A stretch of 64,000 nucleotides of DNA from an uncultured Bdellovibrionales bacterium (lineage in GTDB: Bacteria > Patescibacteriota > Minisyncoccia > Moranbacterales > UBA1568), in contig CAYRWQ010000001.1 of assembly GCA_964428075.1 (NCBI GenBank), forward strand, positions 1,806-65,805, read 5' to 3'. Positions 9,001 to 12,000 of this stretch are shown one piece after another. The position numbers were made by a program. Positions within the stretch are counted from its first letter, which is position 1, and every line of letters starts with the position of its first letter.

Positions 9001-12000
9001 AAAATCATCAGATCCTATCAGACAAAATGGACTATCTCATCGAACATCCTGAAATACGCACGCAATTCGGGGAAAATGCACAGCAAGAAGTATTGGAAAA
9101 ATTCTCTTGGAACCGCGCTATCGCACAATATCTGAGCATCTTTCGCGTACTCCTTGAGACTGAAAGGAAAAAATAGTGCATCACTCGTGACAAATGTATT
9201 GGTTATATCATGAACGTATATGTGCGGTATCACCGGAAAAATCTCCCTAACACAGAAAAGAGTCTCCGTCCAAGAAATCATGGTAATGAACGATGCCATC
9301 AGACACCGAGGTCCGGATGATGGCGGAACCTATCTATCACCGGATCAGAAAATCGGTCTTGGACATCGTCGTCTCTCCATCATCGATCTCTCCCCTCTCG
9401 GTCATCAGCCCATGCGCTATCTGAATCGCTACGAAATTGTCTTCAATGGTGAGATTTACAATTTCCAAGAAAAACGCGAGGAACTGCAAAAGGCAGGGTA
9501 CACCTTCCGGTCCCATTCCGACACCGAAGTGATTCTCGCGCTCTATGATAAATACCGAGCAGGATGCCTCAAACATCTCCGAGGTATGTTCGCTTTCGCT
9601 CTCTATGATGAGCAAGAGCGTGTTCTCTTCGCCGCCCGTGACCGCGTCGGGAAAAAACCATTCAAGTATTTTTTCAATGGTCAGGTTTTTCTGTTTGCTT
9701 CAGAACTCAAAGCTATTCTCACTCAGCCAGAATATACACGGGAGCCAGATTACGAGGCCATTCACCATTACCTCACACTCCAATATGTCCCCGCACCTCT
9801 CACGGGTTTCAAAAACATCCAGAAACTCGAACCGGCGCATTCACTCTCACTCGACCTCAAAACGGGAAAGTTAGAAAAAAACCGTTACTGGAAAATTGAT
9901 GCTTCTGAAAAACTCGATCTCTCTGAATCAGAATGGAAAACACGTATCATTGATAAACTCGATGAATCAACTCGTCTTCGCATGATTTCAGACGTCCCAA
10001 TCGGAGCCTTTCTCTCAGGAGGTGTCGATTCAAGCGCGATTGTTGCCATGATGACCCGTCATTCCCATACGCCCATCAAAACTTTCTCCATCGGATTCAA
10101 AGAAGAGAAATTTAGCGAGCTCCCGTATGCAAAAATGATCTCCGAGCGATTCGCCACGGATCATACGGAGTTCATCGTCGAGCCACGCGCCATCGATCTG
10201 CTCCCGATGCTAGTCAAACACTACGAAGAACCGTATGCCGATTCGAGCGCACTCCCAACTTACTTTGTTTCCAAGCTCACCCGTGAACACGTCACCGTGG
10301 CACTCAATGGTGATGGCGGGGACGAAAACTTCGCTGGCTATAGCCGTTACAGCGCGTTTCAGCTCTCACTACTCTGCGAGCGATTCATCTGGCTCCACCA
10401 GCATATCGGCACCCCCCTCACCAAAACGGCCGCCAAGATGATACGAAATACGCTCTTTGATCGTCTCCATCGCTTCACTCGATCGCTTTCTCTTGACTAT
10501 CGCAAACGGTATATGGATTATACCGCGTATTTCACCGATACCCAGAAAGCCGCACTCTATACCGATACGTTCAAGCATCGGGTCGGACAACGATATACCT
10601 CAGAACTGATCGCTCAATCCTTTAGTCACGCGGGATCAACCGATCGTACCGAGCAAGCAGTCTACGCGGATTACGCCACCTATCTTCCAGACGATCTCCT
10701 GGTCAAGGTCGATATGGCGACCATGGCAGTTGCTCTCGAAGGCAGATCGCCATTTCTTGATCACGAAATGCTTGAACTCTCAGCTCAAATTCCGTTTCAT
10801 CTCAAAATCAAAGGGTTGAACAACAAAAAATACATCCTCAAAGAAGCGCTCCGCGGTGTTCTTCCTGACGAGATATTACTTCGTCCAAAAATGGGTTTTG
10901 GTGTTCCAATCGACATATGGTTCCGTAATGAACTCAAGGACTATGCTCACGAAAAACTCCTGCATGGACACCTCGTAAAAGACCGACTCTTCCGTCCGGA
11001 ATATATCAAGTTTATCCTTGATCGACATTGCTCTACCAATATAAACTTCGCGCCTCATATTTGGGCCCTCCTCACGCTCGAACTCTGGTTTGAGGAATAC
11101 TTCAATTAAACGCTATGGCCAAACCGATCACCGTGATCATGTCCGTCTATAATGAACAGTCCGCCTATCTGACGGCGTCCATCGACAGTATACTGCATCA
11201 GTCCTATACGAACTTTGAGTTCATTATCATGAATGATGGGTCCAATTTCCCGCACATAGCACCGATATTACTGCAATATGCGCAACAAGATGATCGGATC
11301 ATACTCCTGAACAACACTACCAATCTCGGACTTACCGCCGCTCTCAACACAGCACTTACTCAAGCCACTGGAAAATACATCGCTAGAATGGATAGCGATG
11401 ATATCGCGCATTCCACTCGACTCGAAAAACAGTTTCAGTTTATGGAACAACACGCGCAGTATGCACTGTGCGGCTCTTGGGTTCTCCTCATCAATGAACA
11501 TGATCTCCCTACTGGAGAGAAAAAATCCCCAACTACCACGGAGGACATCAAAAAAAACCTGCTATGGTACAATTTTTTTACCCATTCTTCCCTGTTTTTC
11601 CGACGGGAAACAGCTCTCCTCATGCATGGCTATGACCCGTACTTCAAAAAAGCTCAAGATTATGATTTTCTCCTGAGGATCTCAGCCAAACATCCGGTCG
11701 CCATTCTTCCAGAATTTCTCTTATCCCTTCGACTGCACCAGCACAGTGTTTCTGTTCGTTCAAAAAAGGTGCAGGAACAATACGCAATCCGTGCACGCTG
11801 GAACGCTATTCGAAACTATGGGTATCCCAAGATTGATGCTTTCAAAATCATACCATCGATCATATACTTCTTTCTCATTCCAACCTGCCTGAAAGAAAAA
11901 ATATTCGATATTCTGTATAAGAAAAAATAGATACAAAAACCGATGTTTCTCCTCCAGGAATTCCTCAAGTCATTCGTCACAAGTCAAAAGATCCGTATCG

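Follow-up and report, generated by a model that had tools for sequence, protein, structure and literature searches.

The window analysed here is a 64,000-nucleotide stretch of contig CAYRWQ010000001.1 (assembly GCA_964428075.1), and its gene at 9220..11109 on the plus strand encodes a homolog of the glutamine-dependent asparagine synthetase AsnB. I propose that this protein is a carboxylate amidotransferase dedicated to a glycan, with a hexuronic acid as the most probable acceptor and a hexuronamide as the probable product, a reading that the sequence evidence favours on balance. That the acceptor would be a sugar carboxylate was concluded from the leaning of profiles and motifs, from a conserved glycan context, and from enzymes predicted to supply the UDP forms of glucuronic acid (UDP-GlcA) and galacturonic acid (UDP-GalA). 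The protein itself is an intact two-domain enzyme that carries its catalytic motifs, can be placed within the AsnB family, and is encoded in a conserved block of glycan genes.

The open reading frame (ORF) starts with ATG and encodes 629 amino acids, beginning with MCGI. Pfam placed a glutaminase domain of the Ntn type at the N-terminus (GATase_7/GATase_6; GATase_7 E=3.3e-43) and an adenylating PP-loop domain at the C-terminus (Asn_synthase, PF00733, residues 245-625, E=1.8e-100, 337.5 bits), and the best-scoring model, eps_aminotran_1 (TIGR03108, 602.8 bits), aligned colinearly from residues 1-624 of the protein to positions 1-625 of the 628 in the model. The preliminary description had called the product a full-length glutamine-dependent asparagine synthetase homolog, which the two-domain match and this end-to-end alignment bear out. 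The hallmarks of the AsnB superfamily were all present, namely a nucleophilic Cys after the initiator Met, the glutaminase residues and an SGGxDS PP-loop: Cys2, RRLSI, NGEIYN and SDTEV aligned with E. coli AsnB (R49, N74-G75-E76 and D98 in its numbering), as did the PP-loop SGGVDSS. Among the 120 best homologs, MCGI was found in 118 and NGDGGDENF was invariant. The gene is the only AsnB homolog within the 64-kb window, and the window and ~400 kb of related loci held one such homolog per locus.

Profile scores were calibrated on reference proteins from annotated records by subtracting the score for the generic glutamine-hydrolysing asparagine synthase model (TIGR01536) from that for TIGR03108. 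The difference was +108 for the window protein, +118 for a Moranbacteria relative (L002), +91 for an Amesbacteria relative (L019) and +471 for a true member from a Vibrio XrtA system, and it was negative for Listeria AsnB, which amidates meso-diaminopimelate (mDAP) (-71), for its metK-linked Anoxybacillus ortholog (-78) and for E. coli AsnB (-265). The window protein also passed TIGR01536 itself (495 bits against a cutoff of 267.1), but since the Vibrio amidotransferase and Listeria AsnB pass it as well, this model does not fix the substrate. The protein fell short of NF006949, the model for E. coli-type AsnB, with 282.2 bits where the cutoff is 499 and where E. coli AsnB reaches 1050, and identity to E. 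coli AsnB was 28.8%, the window protein being 75 residues longer. The motif xGDGGDE was common to the window protein, the Vibrio XrtA-type member and a Halorussus protein from a glycosyltransferase (GT) cluster; the equivalent loop reads SGEGSDE in E. coli AsnB and SGEGADE in the mDAP type (Listeria, Anoxybacillus).

For both the calibration and a neighbour-joining (NJ) tree, the Vibrio XrtA-type member, Listeria and Anoxybacillus AsnB, the Halorussus protein and E. coli AsnB stood in as proxies for WbpS, WbqG and WbtH; when 5,426 E. coli genomes were searched by blastn with the TIGR03108 gene from Vibrio, nothing matched. In this tree the proteins from the Candidate Phyla Radiation (CPR) formed a clade of their own, outside the Listeria and Anoxybacillus clade (100% bootstrap) and away from E. 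coli AsnB. By its profile scores and its low identity, the window protein is not an E. coli-type housekeeping AsnB. The suggestion that it is WbpS-type rather than housekeeping therefore held in its negative half, and in its positive half as far as TIGR03108 being the best model, though the cutoff of that model was missed. I regard the protein, as judged from these comparisons, as a CPR-specific addition to the known class of AsnB-type glycan amidotransferases and not as a certified TIGR03108 member.

The host is, judging by its AsnB relatives, a Candidatus Moranbacteria bacterium and thus a member of the CPR. The 120 best homologs were 69-100% identical to the window protein, and those with a name came from Candidatus Moranbacteria or Moraniibacteriota metagenome-assembled genomes (MAGs); an identical protein was found on a 13 kb Logan contig (L001). 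A scan of species-representative genomes, made with six peptide patterns specific to the window protein so that divergent paralogs would escape it, returned Moranbacteria as carriers of the window type, along with an Amesbacteria copy at 60% and a Magasanikbacteria copy at 39% identity. CPR bacteria have genomes of ~1 Mb, very little amino-acid biosynthesis and no lipopolysaccharide (LPS). Because the host lacks LPS, the locus is better called an envelope glycan cluster, and the earlier term of O-antigen cluster had to be given up except as an analogy.

The gene lies in a co-directional run on the plus strand (6088..23562), in which promoter-like and terminator-like sites were no commoner than in shuffled sequence. 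The members of this run that recur in related genomes are the following:

6918..7610, plus strand: GT2 of the polyprenyl-phosphate sugar synthase type (PpgS/GacI/AglJ-like), 230 amino acids, from NCBIfam
7592..7984, plus strand: small membrane protein with DUF2304 (GacJ/Rv3632 family), from Pfam (PF10066, E=1e-15)
8004..9176, plus strand: GT4 glycosyltransferase (Glycos_transf_1 and Glyco_transf_4), the upstream partner of AsnB, from Pfam
9220..11109, plus strand: AsnB-family glutamine-dependent amidotransferase, 629 amino acids, from Pfam, NCBIfam and catalytic motifs
20563..21651, plus strand: class I S-adenosylmethionine (SAM) methyltransferase, 362 amino acids, with a Trm112-like N-terminus, from Pfam, NCBIfam and synteny
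21638..22771, plus strand: GT4, from Pfam
22768..23562, plus strand: GT2, from Pfam

Related loci were taken as the AsnB match ±10 kb and compared by tblastn, and 14 distinct Moranbacteria loci, each with at least 8 kb of upstream sequence, were counted. All 14 showed, in this order, the 230-amino-acid GT2, DUF2304, an optional polytopic membrane protein, GT4 and AsnB. In 10 related loci (nine of the 14, and a second copy, L020) the 362-amino-acid methyltransferase directly followed AsnB, and GT4 and GT2 came next. The Amesbacteria locus had the same gene order, including the GT2 and DUF2304 pair, with AsnB at 60% identity, and the block thus extends across two CPR classes. AsnB (71-80%) was among the best-conserved genes of the block when set against the upstream GT4 (40-56% in 14/14 loci) and the PpgS-like GT2 (57-76% in 14/14 loci). 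Across relatives the methyltransferase reached 62-69%, and the second GT4 and the last GT2 showed 35-57% and 50-54% in Moranbacteria, this GT4 being 44% identical in Amesbacteria. The tightest conserved partners of AsnB were consequently the PpgS/GacI-like GT2, the DUF2304 protein, the GT4 and the methyltransferase. Neighbours in the block without a Pfam match had 9-12 predicted transmembrane (TM) segments and a GT-C-like topology. More distant AsnB relatives (34-43% identity) also sat among GT and sugar-modifying genes, in L021, L022, L024, Halorussus and Vibrio. The idea that AsnB is paired with one specific GT4 across phyla was rejected, as the Vibrio and Halorussus GTs matched at 22-30%, which is generic GT4 similarity.

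The scores of the GT2 that opens this block are in keeping with its family without certifying it: the GT2 aligned over its full length with PpgS (155.7 bits, below the cutoff of 370) and also with AglJ (114.9 bits, likewise below cutoff). GacJ is a DUF2304 protein that stimulates GacI (bioRxiv 10.1101/180810), and members of the DUF2304 family, which is that of GacJ and Rv3632, activate GacI and PpgS. By analogy, the DUF2304 protein at 7592..7984 is likely the activating partner of the GT2 at 6918..7610; on the L001 contig the gene caller put its start at 7631. The best NCBIfam matches of the upstream GT4, both below cutoff, were stp2, a PEP-CTERM GT (107.6 bits), and TuaC (100.9 bits).

Enzymes that would supply a uronic acid, and a GT2 paired with one of them, were found on the minus strand at either side of the run:

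128..1435, minus strand: UDP-glucose 6-dehydrogenase (Ugd), from TIGR03026, TuaD and PDB 4a7p
1464..2408, minus strand: ArnC/GtrB-like GT2 of the polyprenyl-phosphate sugar synthase type, paired with Ugd, NCBIfam ArnC 176 bits (below cutoff)
52493..53446, minus strand: short-chain dehydrogenase/reductase (SDR) of the UDP-glucuronate 4-epimerase type, from PDB matches and motifs

The dehydrogenase, already named in the preliminary description, passed TIGR03026, the NDP-sugar dehydrogenase model, with 470.6 bits (cutoff 189.8), had TuaD as its best equivalog (556.6 bits, below the cutoff of 700) and only 69.5 bits for the UDP-GlcNAc dehydrogenase TviB, and matched the UDP-glucose dehydrogenase 4a7p best among solved structures (448 bits). 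By these matches it is the source of UDP-GlcA. Ugd and the ArnC-like GT2 lay within 10 kb of AsnB in 10 of the 14 Moranbacteria loci, and the ArnC-like GT2 was 66-80% identical in 10 loci with Ugd, a range that reaches above the one seen for the methyltransferase at 20563..21651, itself among the better-conserved partners of AsnB. In two relatives a small PF05635 (23S_rRNA_IVP) gene that the window lacks at this place adjoins Ugd: in L003 (1516..1953) it lies on the far side of Ugd from the ArnC-like GT2 and gives an additional weak bAvd match, and in L005 (3630..3899) it lies between both genes.

The SDR, whose alignment to relatives begins at the ATG at 53446, is probably of the UDP-GlcA 4-epimerase type, as had been suggested from its DNFNDYYD signature. 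It carries VDNFNDYYD, GxxGxxG, YxxxK and the Arg of RPDMA, its GRPDMA aligning with QRPDMA of the B. cereus epimerase BcUGAepi, and it lacks the Asp-Glu pair of dehydratases, having SSSSIYG where 4,6-dehydratases have TDEVYG. Its best solved relatives were 5u4q (324.5 bits) and BcUGAepi (UGAepi, 6zl6; 161 bits). Arg185 of BcUGAepi binds the carboxylate of UDP-GalA (PMC12338863) and, by my own reading of the numbering, appears to sit in the QRPDMA stretch. The SDR gene is 41 kb away from AsnB, outside the 10 kb flanks that were compared in relatives. As an aside, 5u4q was deposited as a 'dTDP-glucose 4,6-dehydratase', and this label looks wrong by its motifs: the protein has SSSSVYG, not TDEVYG, together with DNMNDYYD and GRPDMA of UDP-GlcA 4-epimerases, so that its label is no reason to call the window SDR a dehydratase.

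The enzyme would be cytoplasmic. In the proposed reaction, glutamine would be hydrolysed at Cys2 of the N-terminal glutaminase domain, which is the established chemistry of the AsnB family, and the ammonia would reach the C-terminal PP-loop domain by way of an internal tunnel. There the acceptor carboxylate would be adenylated with ATP and attacked by ammonia, giving a primary carboxamide, AMP and pyrophosphate. The acceptor would be GlcA or GalA, with UDP-GlcA coming from Ugd and UDP-GalA from the 4-epimerase-type SDR, and amidation may take place on the nucleotide sugar or on a lipid-linked intermediate. AsnB-family members can use lipid-linked substrates, given the precedent of LtsA, which acts on lipid-linked intermediates (PMC7920481). 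The end result would be a neutral uronamide within a surface polymer; acceptor, stage of amidation and final polymer are all inferred.

The class of enzyme is already known from Pseudomonas, E. coli O121, Helicobacter pullorum and Porphyromonas, and what is new is the lineage. WbpS and WbqG are assigned to the eps_aminotran_1 family (TIGR03108), and deletion of the P. gingivalis homolog PGN_1234 abolishes a uronamide, glucuronamide (PMC7468200); the evidence on WbqG is given as cited there, and the role of WbpS in P. aeruginosa is a proposed one. A wbpS knockout in H. pullorum is consistent with conversion of an N-acetylated hexosaminuronic acid (HexNAcA) to its amide (HexNAcAN) (PMC6025236). 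Like WbpS, WbqG and PGN_1234, the window protein has the AsnB-type two-domain architecture of ~630 amino acids, colinear with TIGR03108, its gene lies inside a glycan cluster with GT4 genes beside it, an arrangement also seen at the Vibrio XrtA locus, it shares GDGGDE with the true family member, and it would be expected to turn a carboxylate into a carboxamide. Unlike them, it remains below the family cutoff at 38.9% identity to the Vibrio member, falls into a separate CPR clade, and has Asn in place of Ser before GDGGDE. Its locus also differs in that no exosortase or PEP-CTERM genes were seen near AsnB, in belonging to a CPR host without LPS, and in its partners (the PpgS/GacI-like GT2, DUF2304 and the methyltransferase), which are foreign to the Wbp pathway.

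Other known systems resemble the window in part. The best match among solved structures was the hydroxyamidotransferase TsnB9 (PDB 7ylz; 204 bits over residues 1-376), which shows that the family accepts carboxylates other than amino acids, although TsnB9 is an enzyme of secondary metabolism and its C-terminal half aligned weakly (12 bits). GacI/GacJ of S. pyogenes and PpgS/Rv3632 of M. tuberculosis are polyprenyl-phosphate HexNAc (N-acetylhexosamine) synthase pairs that work with a GT-C transferase, and around AsnB the window likewise has a GT2 of ~230 amino acids and a DUF2304 protein, together with polytopic proteins whose topology is GT-C-like. In contrast, the GacI/J/L and PpgS systems are described without an AsnB-type enzyme, and the window GT2 misses the PpgS cutoff of 370. 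E. coli AsnB and human ASNS share with the window protein the glutaminase residues and the PP-loop, and the window protein passes TIGR01536; they are set apart by the low identity, the failed NF006949, the additional 75 residues, and the loss of TTIR and of D384/R387.

Several observations weigh against glycan amidation with a hexuronic acid as acceptor. The curated TIGR03108 cutoff of 816.9 was not reached by the window protein, the true Vibrio member scoring 960 bits, and the likeness to WbpS, WbqG and WbtH was judged through this profile and the proxies. Identity to long-form AsnBs from outside the CPR was flat (Vibrio 38.9%, Anoxybacillus 39.4%, Listeria 35.3%, Halorussus 42.7%), and the deep nodes of the NJ tree were unsupported at 2-21% bootstrap, so that the deep branching is uninformative. 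Ugd was missing within 10 kb of AsnB in 4 of the 14 loci, and none was found in the 18 kb of the Amesbacteria locus. At 71-80%, the identity between species is on the high side for an enzyme of decoration and would also suit a core function, the acidic D/E-x-x-D-E loop is retained as D-x-x-D-E, and the long-form enzymes AsnB, AsnO and AsnH of B. subtilis can each rescue an E. coli strain auxotrophic for asparagine (PMC8554201). The literature searched held no experiment or sugar analysis on any CPR glycan, and nothing relevant on AsnB in CPR or Patescibacteria.

Some of these points would suit a working asparagine synthetase (aspartate, glutamine and ATP to asparagine), or a promiscuous enzyme making mainly asparagine, for which the position in the glycan block would be an inherited order without function. 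Such an enzyme would be expected to pass TIGR01536, to keep all catalytic motifs and to be well conserved across species, as is the case here; it would also agree with the single copy within the 64-kb window and with the complementation by the B. subtilis enzymes. Human ASNS holds the amino group of aspartate with the acidic D/E-x-x-D-E loop, which the window protein largely keeps. TsnB9 likewise retains this acidic loop with a substrate that is not an amino acid, and the SGEGSDE-type loop was dropped as a marker of asparagine synthesis. The failed NF006949 speaks against asparagine synthesis, and so do the same glycan-block position in two CPR classes at 60% identity, and one MAG with a second AsnB copy whose methyltransferase, GT4 and GT2 neighbours stand in the same order. 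CPR bacteria moreover mostly lack amino-acid biosynthesis. The residues of the aspartate site in E. coli AsnB (T322/T323/R325 and D384/R387) are not conserved either, the window protein having PYADSS for VTTIRAS, K at the position of R387 and an altered DxxR spacing. The D and R of this site are named as aspartate-binding residues in E. coli AsnB (PMC8554201), but they are missing in every long-form AsnB compared, including those that complement, so that their loss cannot decide against asparagine synthesis, and they were dropped as a discriminator of substrate. Taken together, asparagine synthesis as the main role appears unlikely.

Amidation of the free carboxyl of mDAP, or of another stem-peptide carboxylate, on lipid intermediates of peptidoglycan would account for some of the same features. 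AsnB of B. subtilis and Listeria, AsnB1 of L. plantarum and LtsA of C. glutamicum amidate mDAP. These enzymes belong to the same long-form class of ~620-640 amino acids, likewise lack the D384/R387 pair and have a long insertion in the substrate-binding region, before the YLPDDLLVKVD motif; a high conservation would fit a core wall function, and the window protein is as close to Anoxybacillus AsnB (39.4%) as to the Vibrio XrtA-type enzyme (38.9%). An envelope precursor instead of free aspartate as substrate, which is also proposed for the window protein, is a further likeness, and lipid-linked intermediates are used by LtsA (PMC7920481). Still, the CPR proteins lie outside the well-supported Listeria and Anoxybacillus clade, the profile preference is opposite in sign, and the motifs differ, the mDAP type having SGEGADELFGGY and DDPLADPAA where the window protein has NGDGGDENFAGY and EEPYADSSA. 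The gene adjoins metK in Bacilli, whereas the CPR gene always lies among GT, methyltransferase and GT-C genes, and no mur or other peptidoglycan genes were found among the window ORFs scanned, which leaves mDAP amidation rather improbable. A glycan amidotransferase that acts on a carboxylate not derived from Ugd, such as a HexNAc-uronic acid, a nonulosonic or 3-deoxy-D-manno-oct-2-ulosonic acid (Kdo)-type acid, or a pyruvyl or lactyl substituent, is a further alternative, and the reaction might then take place on the polyprenyl-phosphate-linked sugar from the adjacent PpgS/GacI-like synthase. The constant presence of that GT2, DUF2304 and GT4 in 14/14 loci as opposed to Ugd in 10/14 fits this, as does the Amesbacteria block with no Ugd in its 18 kb. 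The Magasanikbacteria AsnB homolog is accompanied by DegT and acetyltransferase genes, which resembles the Wbp pathway that leads to diacetamido-uronic acids, and the enzymes backed by genetics (WbpS of P. gingivalis and of H. pullorum, and WbqG as cited in PMC7468200) use N-acetylated uronic acids, not plain GlcA or GalA. However, neither the surroundings of AsnB in the window nor the loci examined yielded a UDP-HexNAc 6-dehydrogenase, the one NDP-sugar dehydrogenase observed belongs to the UDP-glucose type (556.6 bits for TuaD against 69.5 for TviB), and the window ORFs scanned turned up neither a nonulosonic-acid synthase nor a Kdo synthase; I consider this alternative improbable.

If glycan amidation by the window AsnB is true, the surface polymer of these ultra-small episymbiotic bacteria would carry amidated and heavily methylated acidic sugars, and CPR metabolic reconstructions that count the gene as 'asparagine biosynthesis' would misassign it. 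A wider and tentative reading, possible if somewhat doubtful, is that the 'asparagine synthase' genes of Moranbacteria, Amesbacteria and perhaps other CPR bacteria serve not amino-acid biosynthesis but the amidating step of an envelope module with seven parts: PpgS/GacI-like synthase, DUF2304 activator, GT-C-like membrane protein, GT4, AsnB, methyltransferase and second GT4. Such a module might build a neutralised (amidated and methylated) surface glycan, with AsnB possibly acting on a lipid-linked intermediate, and might be a core cell-surface trait of the CPR and a candidate for host attachment. The most useful by-product of the analysis is the GT2-DUF2304-GT4-AsnB-MT-GT4 block (MT, methyltransferase) that is common to two CPR classes: it is a defined target for heterologous expression and could give the first chemistry of a CPR envelope glycan.

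The remaining genes of the co-directional run are the following:

6088..6921, plus strand: GT2 glycosyltransferase, first gene of the run, from Pfam and NCBIfam
11115..11930, plus strand: GT2, directly downstream of AsnB, from Pfam
11943..12977, plus strand: GT4-like gene, from Pfam
12974..14656, plus strand: polytopic protein, 9-12 TM, GT-C-like topology, no Pfam match, from TM count
14749..16794, plus strand: polytopic protein, 9-12 TM, GT-C-like topology, no Pfam match, from TM count
16791..17939, plus strand: GT4, from Pfam
17936..18946, plus strand: GT, from Pfam
18915..20480, plus strand: double methyltransferase, from Pfam

The genes from 11115 to 20480 form a window-specific block of 9.4 kb between AsnB and its usual downstream methyltransferase, and this block looks like a lineage-specific insertion. 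As the methyltransferase directly follows AsnB in the 10 related loci, the downstream GT2 at 11115..11930 belongs to the insertion. AsnB had been described as translationally embedded between GT4 and GT2 genes: both neighbours are there on the same strand, but only the upstream GT4 is a conserved one, and with gaps of 43 nt to the GT4 and 5 nt to the GT2 there is no overlap, so that 'translationally embedded' was overstated. A search for solved relatives of the methyltransferase at 20563..21651 gave no informative PDB entry.

Some related loci deserve comment on their own account. The MAG MFD04651.bin.1.47 carries two AsnB copies that are 85% identical (L010 and L020). Behind the L020 copy stand methyltransferase, GT4 and GT2 in their customary order, and the L010 contig ends 1.8 kb past AsnB with its downstream genes beyond view; the pair may reflect a recent duplication of the block or a bin that mixes two strains. 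In the complete Moranbacteria genome CP064994.1 (L023, 10001..11888) an A7 run, perhaps a nanopore homopolymer error, splits the AsnB homolog into ORFs of 243 and 432 amino acids; identity to the window protein is 76% for the N-terminal domain of this homolog but only 51% for the C-terminal one. The Magasanikbacteria locus (L022, 3287..13185), with an AsnB homolog 39% identical to the window protein, has before it genes for a hexapeptide acetyltransferase, a GNAT protein, an FAD oxidoreductase, an epimerase, a DegT aminotransferase and a soluble Pfam-less protein of 631 amino acids, with a GT4 also in the neighbourhood, an arrangement reminiscent of the Wbp pathway setting in which wbpS of P. 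gingivalis lies.

Two membrane proteins lie between the ArnC-like GT2 and the co-directional run:

2470..4833, plus strand: PMT_2/ArnT-like GT-C membrane glycosyltransferase, 13 predicted TM, from PF02366/PF13231 on the identical gene of L001
4849..5964, minus strand: LPG_synthase_TM or flippase-like membrane protein, from TIGR00374 (52.2 bits, cutoff 43.2) and PF03706

The window as a whole is largely a glycan locus, with more than 15 glycosyltransferases, at least eight methyltransferases, a Wzx-type flippase, a carbamoyltransferase, a CapD-like dehydratase and two GT2s of the polyprenyl-phosphate sugar synthase type; its polytopic membrane proteins comprise the PMT_2/ArnT-like GT-C and two proteins of GT-C-like topology without a family match. 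A second glycan part (28482..45084) encodes two GT90-like proteins, a TylF-type O-methyltransferase, Wzx, a HAD phosphatase, a GatZ-like protein, a MobA-like nucleotidyltransferase of 528 amino acids, a shikimate-dehydrogenase-like protein, a ROK kinase, the carbamoyltransferase and the CapD-like dehydratase, and this content suggests a heavily decorated sugar. An ORF at 45026..45883 on the minus strand begins with TTG, aligns with no more than the C-terminal half of the Epimerase model in Pfam and shares 59 nt with the CapD-like gene (43621..45084); possibly it is an SDR gene that is degenerate or was given a wrong start. No transfer RNA or Rfam elements were found in the window. GC skew was uniformly and strongly negative over 1..64000, at -0.09 to -0.31 per 2 kb regardless of the coding strand, and the cumulative skew falls monotonically across the same range.

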